From positions 1 to 43,235 of the forward strand of contig JAMDDL010000162.1 in assembly GCA_023488645.1 (NCBI GenBank): 43,235 nt of DNA, read 5' to 3'. The position numbers and the translations under genes were made by a program. The DNA comes from Actinomycetota bacterium. Its GTDB lineage: Bacteria; Actinomycetota; Humimicrobiia; Humimicrobiales; Humimicrobiaceae. This document shows, one piece after another, positions 7,461-23,987 of this stretch; within the stretch, counting starts at the first letter, position 1, and every line of letters starts with the position of its first letter. The notes beneath the pieces are model-generated. The model worked only from the letters and a program-made list of their open reading frames with translations. It was not told where the DNA came from and made no database searches.

Positions 7461-7571
7461 AATAAAATATTTTTATTGACTTTTAAAAAAAGAAGCTATA
7501 TCTTTTAAAAACAGAAGGTAGTAGCATTTTAAGTAGTGTTTTAAGTTCTTTTAAAAAACAAATAGTTAGTT

Positions 7572-7726
7572 GCTTATAGTGAAGTAATTCTTAAATGGGA
7601 ATCCGGTGAAAATCCGGAACGATCCCGTCACTGTAATCGGGTGTGTACCTTTCAAAAATGCCACTGGCAGTAGATGTCGGGAAGGCGAAGGGTATTGTCC
7701 CGTAAGTCAGGAGACCTGCTGTAAGT
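7572..7726 (+). promoter_or_regulatory. Cobalamin riboswitch B (aptamer), leader of the btuCD-btuF operon
   Basis: Same sequence as riboswitch A with 3 differences in about 155 nt. Core elements are GGGAAUCCGGUGAAAAUCCGGA, the B12 box GCCACUG and CGGGAAGGCGAAGGG. P1 pairs GCUUAUAG with CUGUAAGU. Confidence 0.9.
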
Positions 7727-7743
7727 ATAAATTATGTTGTAAG

Positions 7744-7775
7744 CGCTTTTCGAGGAAAAAGTGGTTATTTTTTTA
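7744..7775 (+). terminator. Expression-platform terminator of riboswitch B
   Basis: CGCUUUU-cgagga-AAAAGUG then GUUAUUUUUUUA. It is an AU-rich 7-bp stem, and covariation with copy A supports it. Confidence 0.45.
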
Positions 7776-7994
7776 TTGTAATACTACCTCTTAAAACTAC
7801 TTTCCCCCGAAAATCCCAAGTTCATATTTAAATACATTAACATTAATTGGTTTATGATAAATGACCAGTAAAAAAAGTTTATGCTGTAGAATTGGCACTT
7901 TAATTTTTCAAAAACCTGAAAAAATGAATTATTTGCCAAAAGACGGTTAGTTAATAACTAAATAAACATTGCTCTATAAAAAAAGGATGGGAAA

Positions 7995-9080
7995 ATGAGG
8001 GAAAATAAGACACAAATATCCAAATTCAGGACAATAAATAAAAAAATTGTTACTTATTCTGTAATAGCAATAACAATTTTATTTCTTATAATAATTATTG
8101 TATCTTCCTTAGGTTCTGCAAGGATACCGGTTTTCCAGACATACAAGCTTGCATTAAACGGAATCCCGCTAATCAGAAATCTGGTAGATATTTCTGATAT
8201 AAATCCAAATTTTAAAATAATAATTCAGGATGTCAGGCTTCCGCGTGTATTCTTAGCAGTACTTGTCGGTATGGCGCTGTCTGCATCTGGAGTAATGTAC
8301 CAGGGTTTATTCAGAAATCCAATGGCAGATCCTTACATTATTGGAATTTCATCCGGGGCATCACTTGCTGCCACTATATCTATAGTGGCAGGATTTTCCA
8401 CAGGAATAGGCGGGGTATCAGCCATCATAGTTTCTGCTTTTACAGGCGCTCTTGCAGTCTCTTTTATTGTATTTAATATATCCAGGGGTAAAGGCGGCTA
8501 TATATCAGTTCTTACATTAATTTTATCTGGAATCGCAATAGGGTCTCTTTGCAGCGCAGGAACTTCTTTTTTAATGATGATTGGCGGAGAAGATCTTCAC
8601 AGGGTTATCTTCTGGATAATGGGGAGTCTTACAACCTCACAATGGATACATGTAAAAATCATCGGACCTGTGATAATAGTAGGCTGCATAGGGCTTTTTT
8701 TATATACCAAAGATTTAAACATAGTTACACTTGGAGAAAAAAGAGCCAGGCAGTTAGGTATAAACACTGAGCTCATGAAAAATATAATTATAATAATAAC
8801 TTCATTTATAGTTGCTGCAGCGGTTTCGGTTTCCGGCATAATAGGTTTTATCGGGCTGGTAGTCCCACATATGATGAGGATAGTAGTTGGGCCGGATAAT
8901 AGGGTTTTGTTACCAGTATCTGCTTTAAGTGGTGGAATTTTACTACTTTTAGCTGATACTTTTGCGCGAACTGCTATGAGCCCAAGAGAAATACCGGTTG
9001 GGATTATCACAGCTCTTCTTGGCAGCCCGTTTTTTATTTATTTATTAAGAAAAACAAAAAAAGACAGAACAGTGGCTTGA
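7995..9080 (+). CDS. btuC: FecCD/BtuC-family ABC importer permease
   Basis: 361 aa and polytopic. The family-typical segments LPRVFLAVLVGMALSASG and GIIGFIGLVVPHMMR are present. It lies downstream of a B12 riboswitch. Confidence 0.85.
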   Translation: MRENKTQISKFRTINKKIVTYSVIAITILFLIIIIVSSLGSARIPVFQTYKLALNGIPLIRNLVDISDINPNFKIIIQDVRLPRVFLAVLVGMALSASGVMYQGLFRNPMADPYIIGISSGASLAATISIVAGFSTGIGGVSAIIVSAFTGALAVSFIVFNISRGKGGYISVLTLILSGIAIGSLCSAGTSFLMMIGGEDLHRVIFWIMGSLTTSQWIHVKIIGPVIIVGCIGLFLYTKDLNIVTLGEKRARQLGINTELMKNIIIIITSFIVAAAVSVSGIIGFIGLVVPHMMRIVVGPDNRVLLPVSALSGGILLLLADTFARTAMSPREIPVGIITALLGSPFFIYLLRKTKKDRTVA

Positions 9081-9084
9081 GATT

Positions 9085-9927
9085 ATGAATAATAAAGAAG
9101 AAAAAGCAATTAAAATTAAAGACCTTAATTTTAGTTTTGGACAGCAAAAAGTTATAAACAATTTTAGTCTGGAGATAAAAAAAGGTGAATTTATAGCACT
9201 GCTTGGTCCTAATGGAGTAGGTAAAACAACTGTATTCAATATAATCTCGGGGATACTGCCTTTCAATGAAGGCGAAGTCAGAATATTTGGTAAAGATATT
9301 TCTAAAATGAGAACAAAGGAAACAGCAGAATATATAGGAATAGTGCCACAGGAAAGTACCTCTAATTTTAACTTCAGTAATCTTGAAATCGTACTTATGG
9401 GCAGAGCATGTAAATCTTCAAGGTTTGAAAATGAGACTGAAGACGACTACAGACTTGCTTTGGAATCTATGAAATTAACTAAAACAGATCACCTCTCTAA
9501 TAGAGGATTTATGGAAATAAGTGGAGGAGAAAGGCAAAGAGTAGTTATTGCACAGGTGATCACTCAGGAGACAGACATATTATTACTTGATGAACCAACA
9601 TCAAACCTGGATATAAACTTTCAAATTGAAATAATGCAATTGATATCAAAAATAAAAGAAGAGAAAAATTTAACTGTCGTAGGAACCTTTCACGATATGA
9701 ATTTGGCTGCTCAGTACGTCAACAGAATAGTTTTAATGAAGGACGGTAAAATATTTAAAGACGGTACTCCTGAAGAAGTTTTAACACCTGAAAATATTTA
9801 TGATGTATTTAAAGCCCGTGTAATAATCGAAAGAAACCCTTTTACAAACAAGATATATGTAACTCCCCACTATAATAATCATAATAAATTTATAGTAAAA
9901 ACGGAGAAAAGAAAAAAATTCATATAA
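9085..9927 (+). CDS. btuD: ABC importer ATPase (BtuD/FepC family)
   Basis: 280 aa. Walker A is GPNGVGKTT, the signature is ISGGERQRV, Walker B is ILLLDEPTSNLD, and the H-loop is TFHDMN. Confidence 0.85.
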   Translation: MNNKEEKAIKIKDLNFSFGQQKVINNFSLEIKKGEFIALLGPNGVGKTTVFNIISGILPFNEGEVRIFGKDISKMRTKETAEYIGIVPQESTSNFNFSNLEIVLMGRACKSSRFENETEDDYRLALESMKLTKTDHLSNRGFMEISGGERQRVVIAQVITQETDILLLDEPTSNLDINFQIEIMQLISKIKEEKNLTVVGTFHDMNLAAQYVNRIVLMKDGKIFKDGTPEEVLTPENIYDVFKARVIIERNPFTNKIYVTPHYNNHNKFIVKTEKRKKFI

Positions 9928-10040
9928 TAGCAGGCGGTGGCAGTGGTTCTTATTTATTCAACATTCTATCATCTGAAGGACATGAGATTTCAACCTGTAT
10001 TTTAAGCAGTATTGATACAGATGCAAAGATAGCACAACAG

Positions 10041-10367
10041 TTGAAAATACCAATGGTTGTTGAGGATCCTCACCAGGAAATATCAGAAGAAAATATCAAG
10101 CTTAATAAAAAGTTTATTAGTAACAGTGATATTGTTGTAGTTTCAAGAGTTCCATTTGGTAAAAAAAATTATGAAAATCTTCTCTCAGTTGAAGAAGCTT
10201 TGAATTTAAATAAAAAAGTTTACTTTATAGATGGTTCAAATTTCTCAAGCCGCGACTACACTAATGGGCGTGCAACTGAATTGTTTAAAAAAATTTTAAA
10301 AAAAGGAGCTGTATCGGTAGACAATGAAGAGGAACTTGCCATTTTACTAAAAAAAGGAGGTGCTTAG
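10041..10367 (+). CDS. Small Rossmann-like protein of unknown function; real N-terminus probably upstream
   Basis: The ORF-track start is TTG 10041. The frame is nevertheless open from 9888 and encodes a plausible N-terminus, KKIHIIAGGGSGSYLFNILSSEGHEISTCILSSIDTDAKIAQQL, with no ATG/GTG/TTG. It ends in a tandem TAG TAG (10365..10370). Confidence 0.5.
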   Translation: MKIPMVVEDPHQEISEENIKLNKKFISNSDIVVVSRVPFGKKNYENLLSVEEALNLNKKVYFIDGSNFSSRDYTNGRATELFKKILKKGAVSVDNEEELAILLKKGGA

Positions 10368-10553
10368 TAGAAAAATATTCATAATTGCTAATTTAGTTTC
10401 TGGTAAATAATTGGCTAAAAAAGCTAAATTAAGAAAATTTTAAACTTAATTTAAGCAAATAATTAACTTAAAAATAATTTATTCACTAGAAACTGGTTTT
10501 ATAAAAAAGGCAGTAAAATTATTAAAAACCAATTAAAAAAGGAGAAGGAAGAA

Positions 10554-11699
10554 ATGATTTTGGAAAAGTTAAAAGTGAAAAAAATATTAATTCCTGTACT
10601 GATTATTATTTTTTCACTAAGTGTGTTGCTTTCAGGTTCAGGATGTAAAGCTAAAGAAGCTGTTAATAAAGCTGTAGAGACAACATCAGCAGCAGTGGGA
10701 ACAACAATGGCAGAGGCTACATCAGCAGAGACAACAACATTGGTAGTAGAGTCAGCCAAAGATGAGTTAAAAGTTAATTACCCCGTAACAATACACGATG
10801 ATCTCGGCCAAGAGAAGGGAAAACAAAACAGAGAAATTACTCTGGAAAAACCCATAGAAAAAGCTATCATTGGAGAACAAGGTTGTGCATTAACTTTACT
10901 TAAATTTGAAATAGCAGATAAAGTTGTTGCAGGAGGATGTGATTTTGTTGCAGGTTATAAAAAAGACGGGAAAACACCAAATATCGCTGGGTATGAAAAC
11001 ATTCCTGTAATTGGTGGATATGGCGGGATTAATGTTGAAAAAATAATTGATCTCAAGCCTGATATCTTTATAAATTTAGCTCATCACACTGATAAATCTG
11101 ATGCTCAATTGGAAGCTGCCGGCATCAGAATATATACGGTTGGATCAATAAAGAATCTTGAAGGTATAAAATTTCATATTAAAAATTATGGCTTTATGTT
11201 TGATAAAGTTTCTGAAGCCACGAAGATAATTGATGAAATGAATGCTAAAGAAGCAAAAGTAAAAGAAGCAATAAATGCATTAAATCTTACAGATAAGGGG
11301 AAACCTCGCGTATTTATGCTTGGTATGGCAAAGGATAAAGATTCTGTCTCAGGCTGGGCACCTGGTGCTGAAACTTTTGTCGATGATTTAATTATAAAAG
11401 CAGGTGGTATTAACATTTTTTCTGAACAGGGGATATCGGGTTGGGCTGAATACAGCTCGGAAGCATTACTTAAGAGTAATCCTGATATAATAATTTTGCC
11501 AATTGGAAATGAAGCATACCAGTATAAATCTGTAGAAGAATTCACTTACAATCCTTTAGTAAAAAATCTCACTGCGGTTAAAAATGGAAAAGTATATGGC
11601 ATAAAAGGGGAAAGTATAACTCAAATGTCTTGGGAAACAGAAGATGCTCTTATGCAGTTTGCTAAGTATCTACATGGAGCAGAAATTAACTTAGATTAA
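10554..11699 (+). CDS. btuF: BtuF-type periplasmic substrate-binding lipoprotein
   Basis: 381 aa, preceded by the SD GGAGAAGGAAG. It has a lipobox (LLSGSG|C) followed by a Thr/Ala-rich linker. Family motifs are KPDIFINL, NPDIIILP and AVKNGKVYGI. Confidence 0.8.
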   Translation: MILEKLKVKKILIPVLIIIFSLSVLLSGSGCKAKEAVNKAVETTSAAVGTTMAEATSAETTTLVVESAKDELKVNYPVTIHDDLGQEKGKQNREITLEKPIEKAIIGEQGCALTLLKFEIADKVVAGGCDFVAGYKKDGKTPNIAGYENIPVIGGYGGINVEKIIDLKPDIFINLAHHTDKSDAQLEAAGIRIYTVGSIKNLEGIKFHIKNYGFMFDKVSEATKIIDEMNAKEAKVKEAINALNLTDKGKPRVFMLGMAKDKDSVSGWAPGAETFVDDLIIKAGGINIFSEQGISGWAEYSSEALLKSNPDIIILPIGNEAYQYKSVEEFTYNPLVKNLTAVKNGKVYGIKGESITQMSWETEDALMQFAKYLHGAEINLD

Positions 11700-11726
11700 A
11701 GTGTGAATATATATTATTACCAATAA

Positions 11727-11867: not shown

Positions 11868-11924
11868 ACAATATAATAGCTGAAGCAAAAAAGAGTATAT
11901 AAAAAGAATTAAATAAACATGATT

Positions 11925-11980
11925 AAGGGATGCGGTATTAATAAAGTTCTTGACGGGTCTTTATTAAAGCTTCATCCCTT
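11925..11980. terminator. Long imperfect hairpin between the convergent btuF and rSAM units
   Basis: AAGGGATG..TAATAAAG-loop-CTTTATTA..CATCCCTT: two 8-bp stems separated by an internal loop. The flanking T/A runs are poor. Confidence 0.3.
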
Positions 11981-12175
11981 TATTTATTGCAGAATGAAAT
12001 AGGACAGTATTGCAAAAGAAATTCCCTTTCAACTCTATGTATTTTCTTAAATCAAACTGATTATAGTTTTCTAAAATTAAAGTGTTCAGACTTTTATCTT
12101 CAGCAAAATTCTTAATGGCAGCTTTAAATAAATTAATAAATAAAACTTTCGTTAAGCAATAAGATCTCTTAAAGA

Positions 12176-13201
12176 TTATTTCTGATGCAGTAATGGTTCA
12201 ACAAACTCATTAAAAAGCCACATTTTGTAAGAACACTCCAGTTTATTTACCGCTAGCCAGTTTTCACTTTCAAGATAGGCGCGGACCGGACATCCTCCTC
12301 TGCATACATACTTTATTTTACAGCTGCGGCATTCTTTCAAATTGTCAACACTCCTTATTATTCTTTTATTAAAGTTGCAGGAATCATTTATATCTCCTAA
12401 AAAACCTTCTTTAAGGTTCATGAGAGACGGACATGAAAACACTTCACCGGTTGGTTTAATAGTCACACTTTCCCCCATAGCTGCATAACAATAATAAGGA
12501 TTTTTTTGCTTACTTATGCTTCGTGATAACAAAACCATAATATCGTTGATTATTGTCTTTGGTTCCTTTAGAAAAAATTTATTAAATAATCCATATGCTT
12601 TGCCTATGCTTTTTTTAATATTGTCAATATCTGCTTTTAAATCATCTAAATTTTTATTGGCTCTGCCTGATTTTCTGAGCAGGTCAAAAGATACACTTTT
12701 TACATTCTGGAAAAGAATAGCAATGCCCATCAACTTATCTAAGTAATCTGAATTTTTAGAAGTAATTACTGCCGTTATATTTACAGGAACACCATTTTCT
12801 TCAAGTATTCTGATCCCATTTAAAGTTTTTTTAGTATTTCCCCTGATCTCGTCATTAATGGCAGAAATACCATCCAGGCTGACATTGACATTTATATCGT
12901 TATCTTTTAAAAAGACGGCCATTTTATCATTTATCATAGTTGCATTAGTTTGTAGCTTTATACTTGACCCCGGCCTCGTTTCTTTAGCATATTTTATAGT
13001 AAAAATAAATTCTTCAGGACAAAGCAGTGGTTCTCCACCTGAAATTTGTAGTACTGAATCATATGGATCCAGAAGCTCAATAGCTTTTTTTATATTTTCT
13101 ATAGACATCGATCCATTTCCCTTTAACCCATCTGCATAACAATATTTACATTCAAGATTACAATTGCCAGTTATTAATATTATTACCTGTTTATAATACA
13201 T
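12176..13201 (-). CDS. Radical-SAM enzyme with a C-terminal SPASM domain, substrate unknown
   Basis: 341 aa. The CX3CX2C motif is GNCNLECKYCY. The SPASM cysteines are CYAAMG..FSCPS and CRSCKIKYVCRGGCPVRAY. It is the last gene of the cobN operon, 11 nt after chlI-D. Confidence 0.75.
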   Translation of the reverse strand: MYYKQVIILITGNCNLECKYCYADGLKGNGSMSIENIKKAIELLDPYDSVLQISGGEPLLCPEEFIFTIKYAKETRPGSSIKLQTNATMINDKMAVFLKDNDINVNVSLDGISAINDEIRGNTKKTLNGIRILEENGVPVNITAVITSKNSDYLDKLMGIAILFQNVKSVSFDLLRKSGRANKNLDDLKADIDNIKKSIGKAYGLFNKFFLKEPKTIINDIMVLLSRSISKQKNPYYCYAAMGESVTIKPTGEVFSCPSLMNLKEGFLGDINDSCNFNKRIIRSVDNLKECRSCKIKYVCRGGCPVRAYLESENWLAVNKLECSYKMWLFNEFVEPLLHQK

Positions 13202-13212
13202 ATAAAGATTCT

Positions 13213-15306
13213 TTATTCTCTTTTAAAAATACCAAGACTTTTTTTAAAATCTTTGTGCATTAATTCTTCCAAATTAAAATATTTACCATCACCATATCTT
13301 ATTATTTCCTGGTTAAAACCAAGTCTTAGTCTTGCATCGTCCGCATCTATTACAAAAATATTTACTCCCTTTTCTTTCAGTTTTTTTGAAATTTCGACAA
13401 TCTCTTTTTTAATATTATTCCCATTCTTAATAGCAACGTTTGCTTTCCCATCGGAAATCAGCACTACCACAGGAATACAATTCTTATCTTTTATAATTTC
13501 ATCTGACATTATTCTTAAAGCTTCCAGCAAACCTGAGGAAAGCGGCGTTTTCCCACCTGTGGGAATTTCTTTTATCTTTTTTGATGCTAAATAAACACTG
13601 CTTGTAGGCTTAATTAATGTTGCCGCATTATTTCCTTTAAAGATAATAAAACCAACTTTATCCCTTTTTTGATATGAATCTTTTAATATTGAAATCAGGG
13701 CACTTCTTGCAAATTCCATTCTTTTTCCAACACCCATCGAGCCTGAAGCGTCCACTACAAAAACTATGGTAACAGCTTTTTCCCTTTCCCTGACTTTTTC
13801 ACGTATGTCATTTATATCGATATCTATACTACCCTTAGTAGCAATAGCGCTTCTTATCGTTGCATCTATTGCTATATCACTTGTATTTTTTTTAGGTATT
13901 TTTGACTTGATATACTTGCCTGAATGGCTTGTTAAAGTCAATGTCCTTCGCCCCCTGCCAGCTTTTATTTTTTTATCCTTTTTAATTTCTATCTCGGGCG
14001 CAATAATTTCTTTTAAAGGCATGCTATTTTTTTCAGTTTCAGGATTAGAGCCGTTTTTATTATCATAGTTACTATTATCATTACTGTTACTTTCTTCTGA
14101 GTTTTGCTGCGGGGGCATATTAAAATTTTTATTTTTATCTTCATTATTATTTTTGTTTTCCGGGTTTTTGCCACTGGAATCTTTATCGCCAGAATTGTTT
14201 TCCTCTTGAGTGTCATTATTTTCTAAATTGCTATCCTGATTATCTTTCTCATTTTCATCCTGTTCTTTTTCAGAAGTATATTGATTTACTATGGTCTTAA
14301 GCTTCTCATTTATCGGTTTTTCATCATCAAAAGGATCTCTACGGACTCTGTGAGGTATTACATATTTTGCTGCTTTTTCAATATCCTGTTTTTCTGCGAT
14401 CAACCTGCCGTCAAGTGCCGCAAGTGTTTTTGAGCATCTTGATATTAAAATGTCTGCTCTATGTCCGTCTATTCCAAAATCAATGCATATTTTTGCTATC
14501 AGATTTTTTAAGTCCTTCTGAAGTTTTACTTTAGGAAGAATTTTTATTGCACTGCTGATCTTTTGAGTAAGAATATCCTGTTCATTTTTATAATTAGAAA
14601 AAAATTTTTCAGGATCCAAGTCAAAACTTTCAACTGCATCAATAATTTTTACCCGCTCATCTATATCTTCAATACCCTTTACATCAACATATAAACCCAA
14701 CCTGTCAGTAAGTTGAGGCCTGAGTTCACCTTCTTCCGGATTCATTGTTCCAACAAGTATAAATTTTGCGGGATGAGTTATACTGATTCCTTCTCTTTCA
14801 ACAATATTTACTCCCATGGCAGCTGCATCAAGCAAAATGTCAACGAGATTATCATCAAGCAAATTTATTTCATCTATATATAATATCCCTCTGTTTGCCT
14901 GTGCCAGTAACCCTGGCTCAAATGAATTCATTGCTCCTTTAAGAGCTTTTTCAACATTAATGCTCCCAATAACTCTATCTTCTGTTGCTCCTAATGGAAG
15001 TGTAACTACTTTTATTTTTCTAGTTTCAGTCCTTAAATATCCACCACTATCTATGATGCTTTGACAAATATCGCAATGTGGCTCTGATATTTCAGGACTG
15101 CAGCCATACGGGCATTCAATACTGAATTCTTTTTCAGGCAGCAATTCAGCTATTGCCCTTACAGCCATACTTTTTGCCGTGCCTCTCTGTCCTTTTATTA
15201 GTATTCCCATCAGATCCTGATTAATGGCATTTAAAATCAATGCTTCTTTTAAAGAATCCTGACCAACAATAGCGGTAAAAGGCAGAACCCTTTTTCCTGC
15301 TTTCAA
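13213..15306 (-). CDS. ChlI/ChlD-type chelatase AAA+ subunit fused to a vWA (MIDAS) domain
   Basis: 697 aa, with a TTG start 6 nt after AGGAGG. The N-terminal ChlI module has FTAIVGQDSLKEAL, Walker A GQRGTAKS, Walker B ILYIDEINLL and GTMNPEEGELRPQL. An Asn/Asp/Glu-rich linker of about 90 aa follows. The C-terminal vWA domain carries the MIDAS motif VVDASGSMG. Confidence 0.85.
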   Translation of the reverse strand: MKAGKRVLPFTAIVGQDSLKEALILNAINQDLMGILIKGQRGTAKSMAVRAIAELLPEKEFSIECPYGCSPEISEPHCDICQSIIDSGGYLRTETRKIKVVTLPLGATEDRVIGSINVEKALKGAMNSFEPGLLAQANRGILYIDEINLLDDNLVDILLDAAAMGVNIVEREGISITHPAKFILVGTMNPEEGELRPQLTDRLGLYVDVKGIEDIDERVKIIDAVESFDLDPEKFFSNYKNEQDILTQKISSAIKILPKVKLQKDLKNLIAKICIDFGIDGHRADILISRCSKTLAALDGRLIAEKQDIEKAAKYVIPHRVRRDPFDDEKPINEKLKTIVNQYTSEKEQDENEKDNQDSNLENNDTQEENNSGDKDSSGKNPENKNNNEDKNKNFNMPPQQNSEESNSNDNSNYDNKNGSNPETEKNSMPLKEIIAPEIEIKKDKKIKAGRGRRTLTLTSHSGKYIKSKIPKKNTSDIAIDATIRSAIATKGSIDIDINDIREKVREREKAVTIVFVVDASGSMGVGKRMEFARSALISILKDSYQKRDKVGFIIFKGNNAATLIKPTSSVYLASKKIKEIPTGGKTPLSSGLLEALRIMSDEIIKDKNCIPVVVLISDGKANVAIKNGNNIKKEIVEISKKLKEKGVNIFVIDADDARLRLGFNQEIIRYGDGKYFNLEELMHKDFKKSLGIFKRE

Positions 15307-15352
15307 AATTATCCTCCTGTCTATCGTGTTAATACTATTATTTAATTTTTTA

Positions 15353-16093
15353 TTATAAACTCAAATCTTTAACACTTTTTGTTGCAAAAAATAAAAACAA
15401 AATTGAGTACCCTGCGATTGTTACCAAAGAATAAATAGGGAATGCTGTTCCCAAGGCTGATGCTCTTATACAATTAACAGAATGAGTTAAAGGGAATATC
15501 ATTGAAAAAATTTTGAATACCACCGGAAATCTTTCAATCGGGAAAAAAGTTCCTGCTAAAAATGCCATCGGCGTCATTATAAAGGAATTAAAATCTCCCT
15601 GCTGCTGATGTGTTTTAACAACTAAGGCTATCCATAAAGCCAGAGCAGAAAACATAAAGCAGTTTAAAAAAATACTTAATAAGAAAAGTATATTAAATTT
15701 TAAAACTACCCCAAAAACCAAACCCAGCATATATATTAAAAAAGATCCTGTTATTCCTTTTAATATCCCGAAACAAATTTTCCCTACAGCTATATCGATA
15801 TTTGATATCGGAGCCACCTGAAATTCTTCAAAAGTTCTCCAGTAAAATCTTTCAACATTTATTGTTGTTCCGATTGAAAATGCAGAATTCATCCCGTTCA
15901 TGGCAATTAATCCTGCAAGCATGTACAGACTATAAGGATATCCATTTATGCTGGTGCTTCTTCCAAGCCCCCATCCGAAGGCCAAAAAAAATAACAAGGG
16001 GCTAAGAACCATCCCGATTAAAGATCTGGTAATATGTTTTTTCTCCCTGGATAAATCTCTATAAATGATCGCCCAAATTCCTTTGGTGCTCAT
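15353..16093 (-). CDS. ABC-2 type exporter permease
   Basis: 246 aa with about 6 hydrophobic helices. Its start overlaps the ATPase stop (ATGA). Confidence 0.7.
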   Translation of the reverse strand: MSTKGIWAIIYRDLSREKKHITRSLIGMVLSPLLFFLAFGWGLGRSTSINGYPYSLYMLAGLIAMNGMNSAFSIGTTINVERFYWRTFEEFQVAPISNIDIAVGKICFGILKGITGSFLIYMLGLVFGVVLKFNILFLLSIFLNCFMFSALALWIALVVKTHQQQGDFNSFIMTPMAFLAGTFFPIERFPVVFKIFSMIFPLTHSVNCIRASALGTAFPIYSLVTIAGYSILFLFFATKSVKDLSL

Positions 16094-16992
16094 TTTTTAA
16101 CCCTTCTTCCTGTTTTATCTAAAAACACATCTTCAAGATTTGCCTCTCTTATTATAATTTTGCCGTCCATTTTACTTGCAGACTCTAAAGCTTTTTCCCT
16201 TGAATCAAAAAAATATGTTGTGCAGTCGTCATGGTTAAATACATCAAGTGCAATAATACCAATTTTATCAATCATATTTTCAGGAGTATCAACCTCGATA
16301 AGGTTACCGCTATTAATTATTGCAACCCTATTGCAAAGCTGCTGTGCCTCTTCTATGTAGTGAGTAGTTAAAAAAATAGTTTTATTTTCAGAATTAATTT
16401 TAACCATTAAATCCCATATTTTTCTTTTACTGTGAGCATCGAGCCCGACAGTAGGTTCATCCAAAAATAATATTTCCGGTTCGTGCATTAATGCCCTGGC
16501 AATCATGAGCTTTCTTTGCATTCCTCCTGAAATTTTTTCCACCTGAACATTTTCTTTATCTTTTATTTCAATATAATCCAGAAGATAATCTATTCTTTCC
16601 AGAATTTTCCTTTTCTTCATATTATGCAGCATGCCATGTACTATTAAATTTTCCTTACATGTCAGTTCCATATCCAGATTAATGTACTGGCTTACAACAC
16701 CCATACTGTTCTTTGCTTCCAGTGGATTTTTAAGAATATCAAAGCTATTCAGATAAACCTCGCCTGAATCAGCTTTTGTAGCAGTAGTGATAATTCTTAT
16801 TGTTGTAGTCTTTCCTGCTCCGTTAGGTCCTAAAAAACCGAATATTTCACCTCTCAAGACATCAAAGCTTATATCATTTACAGCTGTAATTTTACCATAA
16901 TTCTTTGTTAATCTCTTTACGGAAACCGATACCTCATCTATCACCATATCACTACTATATGCTCCCCCCTCCCTATATACTTTTTTTATCAT
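16090..16992 (-). CDS. ABC-2 type exporter ATPase
   Basis: 300 aa. Walker A is GPNGAGKTTT, the signature is ISGGMQRKL and Walker B is ILFLDEPTVGLD. A C-terminal extension of about 80 aa is typical of DrrA/NatA/CcmA-like exporters. Confidence 0.8.
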   Translation of the reverse strand: MIKKVYREGGAYSSDMVIDEVSVSVKRLTKNYGKITAVNDISFDVLRGEIFGFLGPNGAGKTTTIRIITTATKADSGEVYLNSFDILKNPLEAKNSMGVVSQYINLDMELTCKENLIVHGMLHNMKKRKILERIDYLLDYIEIKDKENVQVEKISGGMQRKLMIARALMHEPEILFLDEPTVGLDAHSKRKIWDLMVKINSENKTIFLTTHYIEEAQQLCNRVAIINSGNLIEVDTPENMIDKIGIIALDVFNHDDCTTYFFDSREKALESASKMDGKIIIREANLEDVFLDKTGRRVKK

Positions 16993-16994
16993 TT

Positions 16995-17306
16995 TTAACC
17001 TTTAAACTTTTTTATAATTTCTTTTAATTCGTCTTCATCAGGAAAAGATATTGCAACATTTTGGCACCTGACAGCACAATAGGAGCAGGATACAATGCAT
17101 CTGTATGGATATGCTACAATCACTTCTTTATTATCATTTATTTCATATACCTTCATAGGGCAAATCTGCAAACAGGTTTTGCAATTATTACATTTACTCT
17201 TATCAATCGTAGGGTACCACTTAATCTTATTTCTATCTATACCTTTATATGTATTGCTAATAAAGTCATAATCCCTGAAATTATCATAAACCTTATTTGA
17301 GTTCAT
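16995..17306 (-). CDS. Small 2x[4Fe-4S]-type ferredoxin-domain protein
   Basis: The ORF-track start (17378) lies inside cobN. The internal ATG at 17306 shares a base with the cobN stop (TAATG), giving 103 aa. The cluster motifs are CNNCKTCLQICP and CIVSCSYCAVRC. Confidence 0.7.
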   Translation of the reverse strand: MNSNKVYDNFRDYDFISNTYKGIDRNKIKWYPTIDKSKCNNCKTCLQICPMKVYEINDNKEVIVAYPYRCIVSCSYCAVRCQNVAISFPDEDELKEIIKKFKG

Positions 17307-20300
17307 TATTCTAAATCTCCTTCTATCTCCAGCATTATTTCTCGTAAATTCTCTTTCATTTCCTCCGTAGTATTCCACATATTTCTTTCTATAGCTTCGA
17401 GCAGCCTCTCAGCAATATTATGAAGGGCATAAGGATTATGCTCTTTGAAAAAATCCTGCATCCCCTTATCAAGAGCATATGTTTGAGCCAAAGCATCATA
17501 CATCCAGTCTTCCATTGTATTGCCCGTAGCATCCCAGCCAAAAGCAATATCCACCATTCTTGAAAAATCTCCGGCTCCCTTGAAACCATGTTTTTTCATA
17601 CTTTCAATCCATTTTGGATTTAATACGCGCGCCCTGAATATATGCTTTGCCTCTTCTTTCACAGTTCTGACTTTCACTCTGTCGGGATCTGATGTATCAC
17701 ACGAATATGCCTGAGGATCTTTTCCTGAAAAATATCTTACGGCAGCAATCATACCTCCCTGATAGGAATAAAAATCGTCGCCATCCAGAAAATCATATTC
17801 CCTCGTATCTTCGTTCTTTACAACAATCTGTGTTTTTTTTAGTCTTTCCTTAAAAACTTCCGGCATAAATTTACCAAATTCTTTTTCCGAATAAGCATAA
17901 GCTCCCCATGTTACATATACTTCCGCAAAATCTTTATCATCAGTCCAAGCTTGAGAATCTATTAAATCACTGACCCCGGCACCATAAGTTCCTGGTTTTG
18001 AACCAAAAACTCTTGCACATGCCATTCCCTTGCTTTCTTCAGGCTTTATTTTTTTCTCAACGCAATTTGCGTATGTTTCCTTAAAATGCTTTCTTACAAA
18101 GTTCATCTCATCGGGTTCATCCAGCTCGATGACTTTCTCTACCGCATTATTAATCAAAAATATTATATTGGGGAAGGCATCCCGCAGTCCTCCTTCCCTG
18201 ATTGTAAAATCAATCCTTGGTCTTCCAAGCTCATTTAAGGGAATGACTTCAAACCCTTTAACTCTTCCGCTTTTATCTTCCCATACTGGCTTTACTCCGA
18301 TTAAATTAAATATTTCTCCGATGTCGTCCCCTTTTGTTCTCATAACTCCGCCGCCCCATATAATCATTCCGATACTTTCCGGGTAAGTGCCTTCTTCTTT
18401 TAAATATCTTTCGATTAACTCATCGGCAAGTTTTGAACCTGTTTTAAAAGCAGCTCTTGAAGGAACTGCCTGTGGATCAATGGAATAAAAATTCCTTCCT
18501 GTCGGCAGGATATCGGCACATCCTCTTGTTGGAGCCCCGGAGGGACCAGGCGGCACAAAACAACCGCTTAAAGCTTTGATGCAGGCGTCATTTTCTTCCG
18601 TTGTTCTTGCGAGTTTATCCAGTAATGTTAAGCTTATGTATTTAAGAACCTCATATATTTTTTTTGAATCATGGTCAAAAACCTCCCTAATTGCTTTCTC
18701 TGCAACAGCCATATCAGAGGAATAATTTAATGATTCATACTTATTAATTAACTCAGATATTTTTAAATTAATTTCATCAAGCAGTATAGCATTAGGTTTA
18801 CCTGATAAAGGATTTGTTTTGCCTCTGTTTGCAAGAATGTCTTCATAATCAAGATTGTATATTTCTGCAACCGCTTCTCTTAAAGAAGGAACTGAACCAT
18901 TTGCTAACCTTGTTAATGCTATCAGCATCTCACGAAGCGCGGAATCCTCTGGTGCATGGCCCATAATATGCAGACCATCTCTTATCAAAGTATCTTTTAC
19001 CTCACTTATATACCCGTGCAGCTTATCTATGAATTTATCAAAATCATTAAAAGCTTCTTCTTCGTCAACTTTTAAGTCGGTATCCAATTTTGCTTCTGCT
19101 GTCTTTGCCCATATTATTTTTTGCTGTGCAGGTATCTTCTTGACATCCATGGTCTTTACATCATAATAATCTTTTAATAAAACTTCTATTTCCGCCATCA
19201 TTCCATAACTGTCTGCATTATTCATAACAGGTACAAGATGATCTATAATACATGCATAACTTCTCCTTTTGGCGCATGTACCCTCACTCGGGTTATTTAT
19301 TATATAAGAATAAATATTTGGCAGATCAAGTATGGCAAGATCGGGATAGCAATTTTCCGAAAGGCCTATTGCTTTCCCCGGAAGCCATTCAAGTGAACCG
19401 TGCTTCCCGATATGCATAATAGCATCAGCTTTAAAAATATCCCTTATCCATCTGTAATATCCAAGATACTGCCACGGGGGAGATACCTCAGGATCATGGT
19501 ATATCTTTGCAGGATCTTCCAGAAAACCTCTTCTTGGCTGAACACCGATAAAAATATTACCGTTTATTATTCCCGGAATTAGCACATTATCTTTTATTAC
19601 CATAACTTTTCCCGGAGCCTCGCCCCAGTCGCTTGTAAGTTTTTCCTTATTTTCCGCAGGCAAGTAATTAAAAAAATCCCCAACCTTACTGCTATCAATA
19701 GTATCTATGGCCCTTTCTAATATTTCGTCTTCACTATTCCATCTTAAATCATTAGTTGCACTTTTTAATAACATACCCATAAGCTGATCACCTGTTTGTG
19801 GAACATCATCAACCTTATAACCCTCATCATGTAAAATTTTAAGCAGATTGGCGACACTCTGAGTTGAATCAAGGCCAAACGCAGATGCTATCTGGTCATT
19901 ACGTGGAGGGTAATTATGAAAGATAATAGCTATTTTCTTTTCCGGATTTGGTTTTTTTGAAAGTTTAGCCCAGTTTATGGTAAGGCGGGCTGCTTTTCCC
20001 ATTCTTTCCGGAATAGGAATGAATTTTGTAATCTTAAGTCCTGTAACCTCGTCTCTTTCGCTTATCTCTCTTGTACATACAGGAATTGTAATCAAATCCC
20101 CGTCAAATTCCGGAAGGGCAACGCTCCATATTATATCCATGGGATTTAAACCCTGCTTGCTTTCAATCCAATCAGAATATTCATTATATGAATTAACTAC
20201 TTTAATTACAGGTACACCAAGTTTCCTGAAAAACCATGTACGCTTATAGTTGTCATCGCTATCCCTCTCCATTGACTCAACACTGTTCTCATCTATTTTC

Positions 20301-21085
20301 GTACTACAAAGCGAAAAAAGTAACAACGATACCAGACAGTCTATAACGGTCCTGCCGTCAAGTTGAAAATAATTGGTAAAAAACCAGCCCATATCTTTAT
20401 CTATATCCTCGGAACTTGAGCCAACTGACTCAAAACATGCAAGAACATTTGCACCTTTTTTCTCAAATTCATTAATAAAGATATCAATATATGAAGTATT
20501 TCTTGTAACCCAATCCCTCTGATAAAAAACAATACCTATTGTTGGTTTATCAGGATCAATAAACTCATCAACATATGCCCTCAGATCAGGAAGATGATCC
20601 AACTTCGGATGATAAATACCAAACCTGGGAGGACTATAAGGTTCATTATACTCCACTTTCTTTATCCCGTAATAATTAAGTAAATAAAGGAATAGATTTT
20701 TGAAATTTTCTTCACCGCTATATACTATATATTTAAAAATATTCTTATATGCCTCAATACTTACAGTTGATGTCTTTATGAGATCCGGTCTTATATCAGA
20801 ACTAAAATCAAAAATACAGGTTTGTATATTCTTTTCTTCTGCTAATTTTAAAAACTCTTCATAGTAGGGAAAAGAAGTCTCACCTCCATGAAGATGGATA
20901 ATGAATATATTGCTGGAATTAGCTTCTTCGCGTGCCACACTCATAAATCCTATGTCTTTTAAAGTGTCCTGATTGATTAGATTAATATCAACAATCTTTC
21001 CATATTTTTCATTAACAAAATTCAGACCTTTAGATAAAGGTAGAAGATCACTGTCAATTACGGTAAAATAAGTTATTTTAAGCAT
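17306..21085 (-). CDS. cobN: CobN-family large chelatase subunit
   Basis: 1259 aa, preceded by the SD AAGGAG. The CobN/BchH-family segment is AIMHIGKHGSLEWLPGK (cf. THGxLEWLPGK). Size and overall pattern are typical. Confidence 0.9.
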   Translation of the reverse strand: MLKITYFTVIDSDLLPLSKGLNFVNEKYGKIVDINLINQDTLKDIGFMSVAREEANSSNIFIIHLHGGETSFPYYEEFLKLAEEKNIQTCIFDFSSDIRPDLIKTSTVSIEAYKNIFKYIVYSGEENFKNLFLYLLNYYGIKKVEYNEPYSPPRFGIYHPKLDHLPDLRAYVDEFIDPDKPTIGIVFYQRDWVTRNTSYIDIFINEFEKKGANVLACFESVGSSSEDIDKDMGWFFTNYFQLDGRTVIDCLVSLLLFSLCSTKIDENSVESMERDSDDNYKRTWFFRKLGVPVIKVVNSYNEYSDWIESKQGLNPMDIIWSVALPEFDGDLITIPVCTREISERDEVTGLKITKFIPIPERMGKAARLTINWAKLSKKPNPEKKIAIIFHNYPPRNDQIASAFGLDSTQSVANLLKILHDEGYKVDDVPQTGDQLMGMLLKSATNDLRWNSEDEILERAIDTIDSSKVGDFFNYLPAENKEKLTSDWGEAPGKVMVIKDNVLIPGIINGNIFIGVQPRRGFLEDPAKIYHDPEVSPPWQYLGYYRWIRDIFKADAIMHIGKHGSLEWLPGKAIGLSENCYPDLAILDLPNIYSYIINNPSEGTCAKRRSYACIIDHLVPVMNNADSYGMMAEIEVLLKDYYDVKTMDVKKIPAQQKIIWAKTAEAKLDTDLKVDEEEAFNDFDKFIDKLHGYISEVKDTLIRDGLHIMGHAPEDSALREMLIALTRLANGSVPSLREAVAEIYNLDYEDILANRGKTNPLSGKPNAILLDEINLKISELINKYESLNYSSDMAVAEKAIREVFDHDSKKIYEVLKYISLTLLDKLARTTEENDACIKALSGCFVPPGPSGAPTRGCADILPTGRNFYSIDPQAVPSRAAFKTGSKLADELIERYLKEEGTYPESIGMIIWGGGVMRTKGDDIGEIFNLIGVKPVWEDKSGRVKGFEVIPLNELGRPRIDFTIREGGLRDAFPNIIFLINNAVEKVIELDEPDEMNFVRKHFKETYANCVEKKIKPEESKGMACARVFGSKPGTYGAGVSDLIDSQAWTDDKDFAEVYVTWGAYAYSEKEFGKFMPEVFKERLKKTQIVVKNEDTREYDFLDGDDFYSYQGGMIAAVRYFSGKDPQAYSCDTSDPDRVKVRTVKEEAKHIFRARVLNPKWIESMKKHGFKGAGDFSRMVDIAFGWDATGNTMEDWMYDALAQTYALDKGMQDFFKEHNPYALHNIAERLLEAIERNMWNTTEEMKENLREIMLEIEGDLE

Positions 21086-21128: not shown

Positions 21129-21649
21129 TTATATTACTTTTCTTGCCTTAACCTCTTTAGAGCAAAAATGTTTTATCTATTTCATTTCAGTTACAAGTTC
21201 AGGTATTTCCAATATTTCCGGTGTGGCTTTTCTTCCTGTAAGAACTGTCTCTACTTTTTCTGGATTCAACTTAACAAGTTCTGTAATATCTTCAACCTTA
21301 AGCAAATTAAAATGCACTGCTATACTAATTTCATTAAATATGGTCATATCATGTTTACCTAAAGTTATTATTAATATTATTTCCTCCAAATCTACACTGA
21401 CCATCTCAACATCTTTTTCCCCGGGTTCTTTTCTTATAAAATAACCGTTACCATACTGTTTTATTATCACATTATCTTTAAACCTTTCCAAAGCTTTAAT
21501 CTCATTATATTTTTGCTCTTTATGAATTGGGCAAAAAAGACTTTCAAACTGTATCCTGATGCTCTGATTGCTAAACCAAGTGCAGCTGTTGTTTTCCCTT
21601 TACCATCACCCGTATAAACCTGTGTGTATCCTTTTTCTAATCCTGTCAT
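21129..21649 (-). pseudogene. cobO: Disrupted cob(I)yrinic acid a,c-diamide adenosyltransferase (CobO/BtuR family)
   Basis: The N-terminal ORF carries the P-loop YTGDGKGKTTAALGLAIRA and ..QFIKSK. The frame then breaks in the T5/A5 run at 21510..21514. Homology (KYNEIKALERFKDNVIIKQYGNGYF...TGRKATPEILEIPELVTEMK) continues in another frame. An in-frame TAG at 21177..21179 precedes the conserved tail IKHFCSKEVKARKVI. Confidence 0.75.
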
Positions 21650-21771: not shown

Positions 21772-21816
21772 ACAAAACAAAAAACTCCTGACTTTTCAGC
21801 AGGAGTTATATTTTTT
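21772..21816 (-). terminator. Bidirectional intrinsic terminator hairpin inside the riboswitch C leader
   Basis: AACTCCTG-9 nt-CAGGAGTT is a perfect 8-bp stem. On the minus strand it is followed by UUUUGUUUUGUG, and on the plus strand by ATATTTTTT. Confidence 0.5.
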
Positions 21817-21961: not shown

Positions 21962-21996
21962 AAAAAAATTACACCCTTTAAGCCGAAGAGCTGTAA
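21962..21996 (-). terminator. Expression-platform terminator of riboswitch C
   Basis: The RNA reads UUACAGCUCUU-cggcuua-AAGGGUGUAA (10 bp with one bulge) followed by UUUUUUU. Confidence 0.6.
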
Positions 21997-22002
21997 CATC
22001 AT

Positions 22003-22148
22003 ATCTGTCTGCATGTTTCCTGACTTACGGGACTTTACTCTTCGCCTTCCCGGCTTATTTAAAAGCTAGTGGCATTTTGAAGAGCACACACCCGATTACA
22101 GTGGCGGTACCGCTCCAGTTTTTCACTGGATTCCTTATTCAAACAGAT
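22003..22148 (-). promoter_or_regulatory. Cobalamin riboswitch C (aptamer), upstream of cobO relic / cobN operon
   Basis: The minus strand reads UCUGUUUG(P1)AAUAAGGAAUCCAGUGAAAAACUGGAGCGGUACCGCCACUGUAAUCGGGUGUG..AAAAUGCCACUAGC..AGCCGGGAAGGCGAAGAG..GUCCCGUAAGUCAGGAAAC..CAGACAGA(P1'). Confidence 0.85.
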
Positions 22149-22589
22149 GAATAATTAAATTTCAAACAAGCATAAAAATAATTTTAGTTATTATAACAGA
22201 AAAATAAGTAATTAAAAATAAGTCGAATTGATTTATTTTTAAATAAAAAGTATCTGAAATAGTATTGTTGCTTCATTTAAAAAAGCATCTGAAATAATTT
22301 AAAAAAACGGGAGGAACTCCCTTCATAAAATAATATTAAGAAGTTCATTATGAATTTGCTTTCGGACAGTTATACTTTCCAGTGAATATGAATATATTTT
22401 TAAACTCTTTTATTATTTATTTTATGGGAATTACGGGAATTGCCTCAATTCGGGTTTACTCATTCAAATCATACCTTAGGTATGTTTTAATAAAATTTTA
22501 ATAAAATTACTTGTAATAAATTGATACATACTTTAATATTATTATGTGTTTTATCAAAAATAATTTAACTAACAGTAGTAAGGTTATTT

Positions 22590-23969: not shown

Positions 23970-23987
23970 TTTTAAAGGTTGTTAACA

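Follow-up and report, generated by a model that had tools for sequence, protein, structure and literature searches.

The 43,235-nucleotide (nt) contig JAMDDL010000162.1, from a metagenome-assembled genome (MAG) of the Humimicrobiaceae (Actinomycetota), is treated here as one window, of low G+C content (~33%). Six open reading frames (ORFs) lie on its minus strand at 12176-21085 and encode the large chelatase subunit CobN, a ferredoxin (fdx), the ATPase and the permease of an ATP-binding cassette (ABC) transporter of the ABC-2 type, a ChlI–ChlD fusion, and a radical S-adenosylmethionine (SAM) enzyme of the SPASM type (rSAM). A first-pass annotation, made from the letters of the sequence, had described them as packed like a single machine, and when we reread the ORF positions and junctions its genes and coordinates all proved correct. 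The cobN stop and the fdx ATG share one base (TAATG, 17308..17304), so that the ferredoxin is a protein of 103 amino acids (aa) starting at 17306 and not the product of a 127-aa ORF with a GTG start. The fdx gene is followed after 2 nt by the ATPase gene, the ATPase stop and the permease start overlap in ATGA, the 46 nt between permease and chlI–chlD hold an AGGAGG placed 6 nt before a TTG start, and the gap from chlI–chlD to the radical-SAM gene is 11 nt. According to the gene calls, the same overlaps recur in related loci from other genomes, which we refer to by number: cobN overlaps the next gene by 1 nt in L001 and L004, and the ABC and ABC-2 genes overlap by 4 nt in L001, L002, L004, L087 and L091 and by 8 nt in L089. 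Hence, the translational coupling of these genes is no local accident. No convincing internal terminator came out of a consensus promoter and terminator scan, which was itself uninformative. Read from its sequence, the region appears to form one cobalamin-riboswitch-repressed operon, in the order riboswitch, decayed cobO, cobN, fdx, ABC, ABC-2, chlI::chlD, rSAM (Table 1).

Table 1. Positions, strands and grounds of assignment for the features of the window and for one recurrent gene pair in related loci.
Feature	Position	Strand	Basis
Cobalamin riboswitch aptamer, operon head	21993..22182	-	Rfam RF00174, 90.3 bits against a gathering score of 31.5, full-length match
Terminator-like hairpin with T-tract	21773..21807	-	Arms AACTCCTG/CAGGAGTT, 9-nt loop; read from the sequence
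Decayed cobO (adenosyltransferase; cobO/btuR)	21138..21649	-	Between riboswitch and cobN; tblastn with the CobO of L004
cobN, large (tetrapyrrole-binding) subunit of a class-I chelatase, 1259 aa	17306..21085	-	TIGR02257 and Pfam CobN-Mg_chel
Ferredoxin, 103 aa, 2x[4Fe-4S]	16995..17306	-	Cys motifs CNNCKTCLQICP and CIVSCSYCAVRC; Fer4 Pfam matches
ABC transporter ATPase, DrrA/NodI-like	16090..16992	-	TIGR01188; Walker A GPNGAGKT, Walker B ILFLDE
ABC-2 type permease, 246 aa	15353..16093	-	Pfam ABC2_membrane; several hydrophobic segments
chlI–chlD fusion, chelatase motor/bridge subunit	13213..15306	-	ChlI-type AAA+ domain, acidic linker, vWA domain
Orphan radical-SAM/SPASM protein, 341 aa, without RRE domain	12176..13201	-	Motifs, profiles, AF2 model
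Probable relic of a NifK/BchB-like gene	12033..12116	-	Downstream of the radical-SAM gene; tblastn and tblastx
Corrinoid-uptake operon, convergent	7560..11699	+	Riboswitch 7560-7737 (Rfam, 115 bits), btuC, btuD, 108-aa ORF, btuF lipoprotein
CbiK-family protein with lipoprotein signal peptide (…LAGTIGC)	1053-1934	-	Own cobalamin riboswitch at 2129-2306 (-)
ABC/ABC-2 pair without CobN	L087/L088 8583-10741; L089 9151-10735; L090 5610-7240; L092 8558-12501		Recurrent pair

The aptamer upstream on the coding strand, with a predicted expression platform after it, places the operon in the cobalamin (B12) riboswitch regulon. The platform is probably the hairpin with its T-tract, which a consensus scan missed because its loop exceeds 8 nt. 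Membership in the B12 regulon is further supported by equivalent riboswitches upstream of homologous modules in eight other loci (L001, L002, L004, L005, L006, L015, L017 and L019), and a response to the ligand has been demonstrated for the riboswitch of a similar operon in Dehalobacter restrictus, named operon-2 (PMC4285132). Between the riboswitch and cobN, a tblastn search with the intact 175-aa CobO of L004 found a remnant of cobO in two frames (62% and 52% identity); compared with that intact gene, its reading frame shifts near codon 43 and meets an in-frame stop near codon 156. An intact cobO occupies the same place in L004 and L087. The copy in the window may be a pseudogene, or may carry sequencing errors of the MAG. 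The riboswitch, cobO and a nitrogenase-like relic described below had gone unmentioned in the first-pass annotation and are added here.

CobN appears to be of the genuine cobaltochelatase type, because it passes the curated model TIGR02257 (1029.8 bits, cutoff 822.05, residues 9-1255) and is closest, among solved structures, to the CobN of Mycobacterium tuberculosis (7c6o, 795 bits) rather than to ChlH (514 bits) or HmuS (375 bits). The Pfam domain CobN-Mg_chel spans residues 118-1243, and the alignment to CobN models is continuous, whereas the match to HmuS (9d26) is restricted to the C-terminal third. HmuS is a CobN homologue that works in anaerobes as an ATP-independent haem dechelatase without ChlI/D (PMC12583661). 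The protein of the window shows none of its traits, i.e., N- and C-terminal anchors, a Met-rich insertion, a length above 1400 aa and the lack of a ChlI/D partner; no membrane anchor of the HmuS type was seen in its 1259 aa, which include a single weak hydrophobic stretch.

The AAA+/vWA partner of CobN is encoded in the same operon by the ChlI::ChlD fusion. This protein matches TIGR02442 from end to end (residues 9-680 of 697) with a score of 734.5 bits, below the cutoff of 779.45, and we regard it as a near-member of that family with a predicted architecture identical to it: the BchI model TIGR02030 covers residues 9-330 (393 bits) and the vWA domain residues 514-658, with P-loop GQRGTAKS, Walker B ILYIDEIN and MIDAS DASGS. 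We compared 15 ChlI/ChlD sequences, from the window, the loci L001-L015 and L091, and 14 of them have the P-loop variant GxxGTAKS and not GxxGTGKS, the ChlI of L091 being the one that keeps GTGKS. The ChlI-type domains of the modules also have a Cys-rich insert (e.g., CPYGCSPEISEPHCDIC) that is missing from the ChlD-type domains; this insert might be a site of metal binding or of modification by the radical-SAM enzyme. The window has no separate chlI gene, and its annotated ORFs include no cobS or cobT. Of the 14 loci that carry cobN, window included, 13 encode a ChlI/D motor, and in the remaining one (L012) none is in view on a contig of 11.7 kb.

The radical-SAM protein is less easily placed. 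Its CxxxCxxC motif (C14/C18/C21) at residues 14-21 is invariant in 20 relatives and begins so early that there is no room for an RRE domain before it. Seven C-terminal cysteines (C238, C257, C291, C294, C300, C304 and C323) are equally invariant in these relatives and follow the SPASM pattern (C-x9-15-G-x4-C ... C-x2-C-x5-C-x3-C ... C), while Pfam PF13186 gave no match at E<=1e-3. The AlphaFold (AF2) model has a pLDDT of 92, with TM-scores of 0.85 to CteB and 0.77 to anSME. All NCBIfam matches are below 125 bits, for cutoffs of 225-855: DynA 123/450 (bits/cutoff), PapB 118/340, anSME 99/349, NirJ2 82.9/500, NirJ 79/515, AhbD 75/500 and AhbC 72/650. Because the scores reach no curated cutoff, neither of the anSME and ribosomally synthesized and posttranslationally modified peptide (RiPP) maturases (PapB, DynA, SCIFF, sactipeptide) nor of the AhbC/AhbD/NirJ equivalogs, and because identity to the NirJ1 and NirJ2 encoded in the window is 25-31%, the protein appears to represent an orphan SPASM family without a curated model. 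The likeness to NirJ, AhbC and AhbD noted in the first-pass annotation holds for the generic SPASM layout and does not extend to closer kinship, given this identity and the higher scores of peptide and protein maturases. The family is small: an exhaustive profile search of 1.84 billion representatives gave a few dozen single-domain clusters at 50% identity above ~300 bits, below which the list mixes in other SPASM families. Proteins of 750-1300 aa considered as NifH/D-rSAM Rosetta-stone fusions were set aside, since Pfam resolves them as tandem radical-SAM repeats or Peptidase_MA fusions of other families.

Could this enzyme modify a peptide or a protein? A RiPP reading was rejected, as the 480-nt spacer past the gene holds no precursor peptide, only unconserved ORFs of 22-42 aa, and has the nitrogenase-like relic there instead. 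An anSME-like maturase that acts on the chelatase (e.g., on the Cys-rich insert of ChlI), on a Btu component or on another partner would fit the closest relatives in sequence and fold (CteB, anSME, TigE, ChlB and SuiB), which modify peptides or proteins, as well as the lack of an RRE domain, as in anSME, and the conserved insert (C-x4-C...) of the ChlI-type domains of the modules. We nevertheless find this quite unlikely: the SPASM enzymes that tailor tetrapyrroles (AhbC/D, NirJ) are equally RRE-less, no precursor-peptide ORF lies nearby, and translational coupling joins the gene in L001 and L002 to that of a nitrogenase-like reductase, which counts the tetrapyrrole reductases DPOR, COR and CfbCD among its characterised relatives.

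The company kept by this enzyme is very constant. We made a single scan of a genome collection with generic radical-SAM peptide patterns, defined family loci by a radical-SAM score of >=100 bits (n=18), defined linkage as cobN within 10 kb, and read the presence or absence of genes per locus from a tblastn matrix; 67 of the 86 loci contain unrelated SPASM enzymes and served as a negative control. cobN is linked in 13 of the 18 family loci and in none of the 67 others (Fisher p ~1e-11), and the five unlinked loci are short contigs or the lowest scorers. Linkage spans Clostridia, Negativicutes, Spirochaetes, Desulfobacterota and Actinomycetota. Chance juxtaposition is ruled out by this enrichment and by the conserved overlapping junctions. 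The co-variation of CobN and radical-SAM identities was not used as evidence (rho 0.64 overall, 0.20 without the three close relatives). The conservation of the neighbourhood, a point that had been left to be checked, is borne out by the recurrence of the gene set in many genomes, including those of cultured organisms. By these comparisons, the core of the module is CobN, ChlI/ChlD and one particular SPASM radical-SAM enzyme, a set widespread and conserved in anaerobes.

The loci differ in what surrounds this core. The relatives with 41-46% radical-SAM identity (L001, L002 and L004) all have btuFCD genes adjoining. L001 and L002 have the order cobN-ABC-ABC2-chlID-rSAM, with genes for a NifH::NifD-like fusion and a NifK-like protein after it, and L004 has cobO-cobN-fdx-ABC-ABC2-rSAM-(nitrogenase-like fragment). 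More distant relatives (25-39% identity), from a Clostridiales MAG, Treponema, two Phascolarctobacterium MAGs, Selenomonas, Desulfobulbus elongatus DSM 2908, an Actinomycetes MAG and unclassified metagenome contigs, have the radical-SAM gene beside cobN and separate chlI and chlD genes. In most loci the module has btuFCD or TonB-receptor genes as direct neighbours, and in L005, L010 and L015 the two sets are intermingled. Seven loci and one JGI contig also have cbiZ, which encodes a cobinamide/cobamide amidohydrolase, and L002 has cbiP/cbiA upstream of the module.

The nitrogenase-like genes and the ferredoxin may be linked in their evolution. In L001 (11035-14791) and L002 (11060-14807), a gene for a 790-aa fusion of a NifH-like ATPase to a NifD/E-like domain, and then a NifK/BchB-like gene, follow the radical-SAM gene; in L001 the start of the fusion gene and the radical-SAM stop overlap, and in L002 the start comes 18 nt after the stop. 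NifH-, NifD- and NifK-like genes accompany the module in L001, L002, L006, L011 and L013. The NifD/K-like subunits match the DPOR, COR and CfbD models far below their cutoffs, and the NifH-like domain scores nearly as high for CfbC as for NifH, yet below the cutoff. The proteins of L001 and L002 may form an undescribed group linked to B12 metabolism. They are not the Group VI nitrogenase paralogues of Elusimicrobia, proposed to reduce tetrapyrroles, which were considered and discarded as a different cluster since the paper on them reports no chelatase or CobN. The window itself encodes no nitrogenase-like tetrapyrrole reductase; all that is left is a weak, probable relic, whose 28 aa are 50% identical to the NflK of L001 (E=2e-5, tblastn over 600 nt), and which also matches by tblastx the Oxidored_nitro fragment 3' of the radical-SAM gene in L004. 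It sits where the gene orders of L001, L002 and L004 would have such a gene. This would mean that nitrogenase-like genes were lost in the lineage of the window, which is also the only one carrying the ferredoxin. L004 encodes a ferredoxin of 103 aa (82% identical) at the same operon position, and none was found in the 18 other loci of the radical-SAM family that were screened (L001-L003 and L005-L019); its best NCBIfam matches are HgcB-like and far under cutoff. The ferredoxin is thus confined to the two loci where nitrogenase-like genes are lost or fragmentary, a pattern of four loci which suggests that it took over their role as electron donor.

The ABC/ABC-2 pair is more loosely attached. 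Predicted from sequence, it can be assigned to superfamilies only (Pfam ABC_tran and ABC2_membrane): the ATPase scores 286 bits for DrrA (TIGR01188, cutoff 312) and 219-234 for NodI (cutoffs 424-549), the permease 75 for NodJ (cutoff 207) and 74 for DrrB (cutoff 223), and neither CcmA/B nor NatA/B is among the 25 best ATPase families listed or the seven permease families. Profile classification, which the first-pass annotation had proposed as a check, separates both this pair and the radical-SAM protein from NatAB, DrrAB, NodIJ, anSME, AhbC/D and NirJ, all NCBIfam scores being below cutoff. Homologous pairs, with ATPases of 45-69% identity, lie inside the modules of L001, L002, L004, L005, L007, L015 and L017, whereas the pair is absent from 6 of the 14 loci with cobN (L006, L010, L011, L012, L013 and L019), and CobN-ChlI/D-rSAM sets without it are found in Treponema, Phascolarctobacterium and Selenomonas. 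Conversely, a "Candidatus Humimicrobiaceae" MAG (L087/L088) encodes the closest permease (89% identical), and there riboswitch, cobO, ABC and ABC-2 stand alone before a hem operon. The pair also heads hem/cbi operons in a Thermoanaerobacterales MAG and a Nitrospirota MAG, lies 3' of btuC-btuF-chlD-chlI in a Desulfatibacillaceae MAG, and in a Firmicutes MAG has the order cobO-ABC-ABC2-CN_hydrolase, before SLH/DUF4430 surface proteins. Because it occurs with cobO alone and at the head of hem/cbi operons, it seems to belong to the B12 gene set at large, as a separable sub-module that is not specific to CobN, and it is a candidate for a new B12-regulon transporter. The tight coupling seen in the first-pass annotation stands, then, while the single machine was an overstatement: the operon combines at least two sub-modules of the B12 regulon, each found without the other. 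Two gene families recur near these genes: a CN_hydrolase (nitrilase-superfamily amidase) of ~570 aa lies 3' of the radical-SAM gene in Desulfobulbus elongatus (L017, ~11000-12612) and 3' of ABC-2 in the Firmicutes MAG (L092, 10783-12501), and DUF3842 genes recur close to the pair in L089 and L091.

What the pair transports bears on a reading made in the first-pass annotation, in which the system metallates, tailors and exports a tetrapyrrole. The assignment as an exporter was drawn from the fold alone, and repression by B12 is the logic of genes for uptake or supply; M. tuberculosis imports B12 through an ABC protein of exporter fold (PMC3603451). A distinct metallated tetrapyrrole, made, tailored and exported as a B12-sparing cofactor or as a secreted cobalt or corrinoid scavenger later re-imported, would agree with the usual direction of ABC-2 transporters and with the exported CbiK-like lipoprotein, with its own riboswitch, in the window. 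B12-independent substitutes such as metE are also repressed by B12 riboswitches. Chelatase, radical-SAM enzyme and nitrogenase-like reductase together are the enzymology of (bacterio)chlorophyll, and chelatase with nitrogenase-like reductase that of F430 (PMC13474568). We consider this very unlikely all the same, since the pair is dispensable (absent from 6 of 14 loci) and occurs with cobO alone, there is no conserved amidase, ligase or methyltransferase for a separate pathway, and CobN has a bona fide cobaltochelatase-type sequence. The earlier proposal found no specific support; the steady partners, uptake genes and cbiZ, indicate supply or salvage. Its accompanying suspicion that this may not be a standard B12 step is reasonable. 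The system is real, conserved and uncharacterised.

Dehalobacter and Acetobacterium are already known to carry this gene set, which has been left unexplained there. In D. restrictus PER-K23, operon-2 (Dehre_0281-0292) has the order fepB-cbiZ-fepD-fepC-cbiZ-fepB-cobN-chlD-chlI-rSAM(SPASM)-NodI-NodJ, and it is syntenic in Acetobacterium woodii (PMC4285132). D. restrictus is a corrinoid auxotroph, in which transcription of this operon, downstream of its riboswitch, rises 346-fold on corrinoid starvation and the detected proteins 17- to 83-fold at low cobalamin (CobN 31-fold, ChlD 46-fold, ChlI 28-fold, the radical-SAM protein 17-fold and the ABC ATPase 29-fold) (PMC4285132). Rupakula et al. 2015 assigned the operon to "transport and salvage" and left the radical-SAM and ABC-2 genes undiscussed (PMC4285132). 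Our literature search found no paper that links the radical-SAM family or the nitrogenase-like reductase to CobN.

Taking these observations together, we tentatively favour a corrinoid rescue (salvage) system, induced by B12 starvation and built around ATP-driven cobalt insertion, at somewhat short of an even chance. Rescue is favoured by the ChlI/D motor in 13 of 14 loci, the genuine CobN type and the presence of the module in an auxotroph; supply or salvage follows from the steady partners, i.e., corrinoid uptake genes and cbiZ. The neighbouring Btu system would import a cobalt-free or otherwise incomplete corrinoid, into which CobN, powered by the ChlI/D AAA+/vWA motor, would insert cobalt with hydrolysis of ATP. 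The radical-SAM enzyme could perform an oxygen-independent tailoring or repair of the same macrocycle. The ferredoxin could feed low-potential electrons to the radical-SAM cluster, to the reduction of Co(II) to Co(I) before adenosylation, or to both; in relatives, the NifH/D/K homologues could take its place as electron donor. The ABC/ABC-2 pair could move cobalt, corrinoid or a by-product. The layout of the operon, its control by B12, its conservation, its linkage to uptake genes and cbiZ and the induction in Dehalobacter are observed; which substrate is used, in which direction the metal moves, and what the radical-SAM enzyme, ferredoxin and transporter do are inferred. Several points weigh against this scenario. 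A pool of cobalt-free corrinoids in anoxic habitats is not documented here, and plain cobalt insertion leaves the radical-SAM enzyme, the nitrogenase-like genes and the ABC-2 pair unexplained. Peptides and proteins are the substrates of the enzymes that come nearest to the radical-SAM protein in structure. The window has a decayed cobO and no cbiZ and has lost the nitrogenase-like genes, so that this copy may be a reduced version. The Dehalobacter radical-SAM protein was matched to that of the window by annotation, length and position, not by sequence, and the study supplied cyanocobalamin only, the function of the operon being outside its scope (PMC4285132).

The direction of metal transfer could also be the reverse. 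The radical-SAM enzyme and the nitrogenase-like reductase might reduce or open imported but unusable corrinoids, CobN might strip their cobalt for de novo synthesis, and the ABC-2 pair might expel the metal-free ring, by analogy with HmuS, which takes haem iron and releases protoporphyrin IX. Such mining of cobalt would give every component a job, exporter included; HmuS shows that dechelation by a CobN homologue does occur in anaerobes (PMC12583661), and genes for cobalt uptake are also under B12 riboswitches (PMC2667541). It is, in our judgement, highly improbable. Insertion is favoured over removal because ChlI/D accompany CobN in 13 of 14 loci, while HmuS needs neither ATP nor partners, and the CobN of the window has none of the HmuS hallmarks and fits true CobN with much higher scores. 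Chemically, it is very demanding to take cobalt out of a corrin, and we know of no biological example. For a cell starved of B12, moreover, the corrinoid is worth more than its cobalt, and an auxotroph such as D. restrictus would gain nothing.

Forward insertion could instead serve de novo synthesis, in an oxygen-independent branch with late cobalt insertion where the radical-SAM enzyme, joined in relatives by the nitrogenase-like reductase, replaces steps that depend on O2 or NAD(P)H, such as CobG/CobZ or CobK. A cobalt-free corrin would be built first and then metallated by CobN-ChlID, as in Mycobacterium and other Actinomycetota. The source of the window is itself an actinomycetotal (Humimicrobiaceae-like) MAG, and M. 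tuberculosis has the closest solved CobN. The genes cbiA, cbiC and cbiD lie near the module in the window and, as said, cbiP/cbiA upstream of it in L002. The CbiK-like gene had been counted in the first-pass annotation as evidence of early cobalt insertion, a role that does not fit its product, a predicted lipoprotein under its own riboswitch: because of the signal peptide, this protein appears to be exported and not a cytosolic, early sirohydrochlorin chelatase. In this it is like the periplasmic CbiK(P) of Desulfovibrio. It is also the sole CbiK-family gene in the window, where no cytosolic early chelatase is visible; the window is part of a genome, and the absence of cbiX cannot be claimed from it. 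The anaerobic Mg branch (BchHID/BchE/BchLNB) has a matching trio of class-I chelatase, radical-SAM enzyme and nitrogenase-like reductase. Still, we hold a de novo branch to be unlikely. In most phyla the module lies inside uptake and cbiZ operons, not cbi operons; its strong induction occurs in D. restrictus, which is unable to make corrinoids de novo, and A. woodii has it alongside a complete early-insertion pathway (PMC4285132).

The module bears on an older question. The remark in the first-pass annotation that a late-type chelatase has no obvious canonical job here touches an acknowledged open issue: in archaea and anaerobes with early insertion, the literature assigns late-type chelatases no role beyond "perhaps salvage" (PMC8305020, PMC12583661), a possibility also raised by Rodionov 2003 in the part quoted in PMC6460266. 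Why anaerobes with early insertion, and even auxotrophs, keep a costly ATP-driven late cobaltochelatase has been a puzzle since the first comparative genomics of B12 (PMC8305020, PMC12583661). The present data indicate that these chelatases are not solitary, being locked to one orphan radical-SAM family, often with a nitrogenase-like reductase, cbiZ, ABC-2 transporters and B12 riboswitches. As the module is expressed under B12 starvation in a cultivable organism, a puzzle of twenty years becomes a defined set of proteins with testable substrates. Rescue of cobalt-free or damaged corrinoids would be a new currency in the B12 cross-feeding of guts, digesters and sediments, and would change which genomes are called "salvagers" or "producers." If the ABC-2 pair moves corrinoids or cobalt, the B12 regulon would have a new class of transporter.

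A bolder reading, which we also think unlikely, is that CobN-ChlI/D, the SPASM enzyme and, in relatives, the nitrogenase-like reductase perform an undescribed oxygen-independent corrin chemistry that amounts to a third route of cobalt into B12. In one version, a usable corrinoid may be rebuilt from a cobalt-free, damaged or non-cognate macrocycle of the community. In the other, the radical-SAM enzyme may adenosylate the fresh Co(II) corrinoid through its 5'-deoxyadenosyl radical, bypassing Co(I) and CobO; the decay of cobO in the window is noted alongside this version. The ABC-2 pair would in either case be a new type of B12-regulon transporter.

Around the module, the window has further genes of B12 and tetrapyrrole metabolism. 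The uptake operon, called from BtuC, BtuD and PBP family matches and the lipoprotein signal peptide of BtuF, ends 477 nt from the radical-SAM gene. A 108-aa ORF between its btuD and btuF (10041-10367, +) has no family match. Divergent from the cbiK-like gene and its riboswitch lies a gene for an LVIVD-repeat beta-propeller protein with an N-terminal hydrophobic segment (2483-3541, +); elsewhere, CbiK-like genes adjoin the radical-SAM gene in L014 and L017. A ten-gene operon (32173-42528, -), headed by a cobalamin riboswitch at 42339-42528, has the order cysG(N)-hemA-hemC-cobA/hemD-nirJ1-hemB-nirJ2-ahbA-ahbB-hemL, and the same hem/nirJ/ahb arrangement is found in the Humimicrobiaceae relative (L087, 10945-20741). 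Genes of the alternative haem route (Ahb/NirJ-like), beyond the shared trunk, appear from this layout to be under B12 control. An isoprenoid/hopanoid cluster (22590-32102, +), with a polyprenyl synthase, type 2 idi, hpnH, hpnA, squalene-hopene cyclase and ispE, has as its host an anaerobic, low-GC Actinomycetota (Humimicrobiaceae-like) MAG.

How does the module compare with known tetrapyrrole systems? With the late cobaltochelatases, CobNST of Pseudomonas denitrificans and CobN with ChlID in Actinomycetota and cyanobacteria, it shares a CobN that passes the equivalog model, a ChlI/ChlD-type partner and an adjacent cobO; the replacement of CobS/CobT by ChlI/ChlD was predicted by Rodionov 2003, in the passage quoted in PMC9227772. 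It differs from them in belonging to an anaerobe with no sign of the oxygen-dependent route, in embedding a radical-SAM enzyme, an ABC-2 pair and a ferredoxin, to which relatives add nitrogenase-like genes and cbiZ, and in being tied to uptake genes rather than cob biosynthesis genes. HmuS/BtuS of Bacteroidota offer a second parallel, as CobN-superfamily proteins of anaerobes with TonB-dependent or ABC uptake genes for a metallo-tetrapyrrole and a logic of salvage (PMC12583661, PMC6460266). But HmuS exceeds 1400 aa and is membrane-anchored with a Met-rich insert, while the protein of the window is predicted to be soluble and CobN-like (795 against 375 bits), is under the control of B12 and not iron, and has ChlI/D.

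The magnesium branch (BchHID/BchE/BchLNB) and F430 synthesis (CfbA-E) are resembled by the relatives L001, L002, L006, L011 and L013, which combine class-I chelatase, radical-SAM enzyme and nitrogenase-like reductase. Unlike in these pathways, the nitrogenase-like genes are lost from the window and the NifD/K-like subunits of the relatives fit no DPOR, COR or CfbD model; unlike in the Mg branch, the radical-SAM enzyme is of the SPASM type and not the B12-binding BchE type, and regulation and neighbours are B12-related. AhbC, AhbD and NirJ, including the NirJ1 and NirJ2 encoded at 34418-37625, share with our protein a radical-SAM core, a C-terminal SPASM region, the lack of an RRE domain and a length of ~330-390 aa, but identity is 25-31%, scores are 72-83 bits against cutoffs of 500-650, and DynA, PapB and anSME score higher.

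Operon-2 of D. restrictus has the same riboswitch, a CobN of 1262 aa, ChlD- and ChlI-type subunits, NodI/NodJ-like ABC and ABC-2 proteins, adjoining uptake genes, and a radical-SAM protein of 347 aa annotated with an "additional 4Fe4S-binding (SPASM) domain." The window differs from it in the fusion of chlI and chlD, which are two genes there, in the ferredoxin between cobN and the ABC genes, in the decayed cobO and missing cbiZ, and in the placement of the uptake genes in a separate, convergent operon. The module is a new variant of the CobN-ChlID chelatase context and not a categorically new system.

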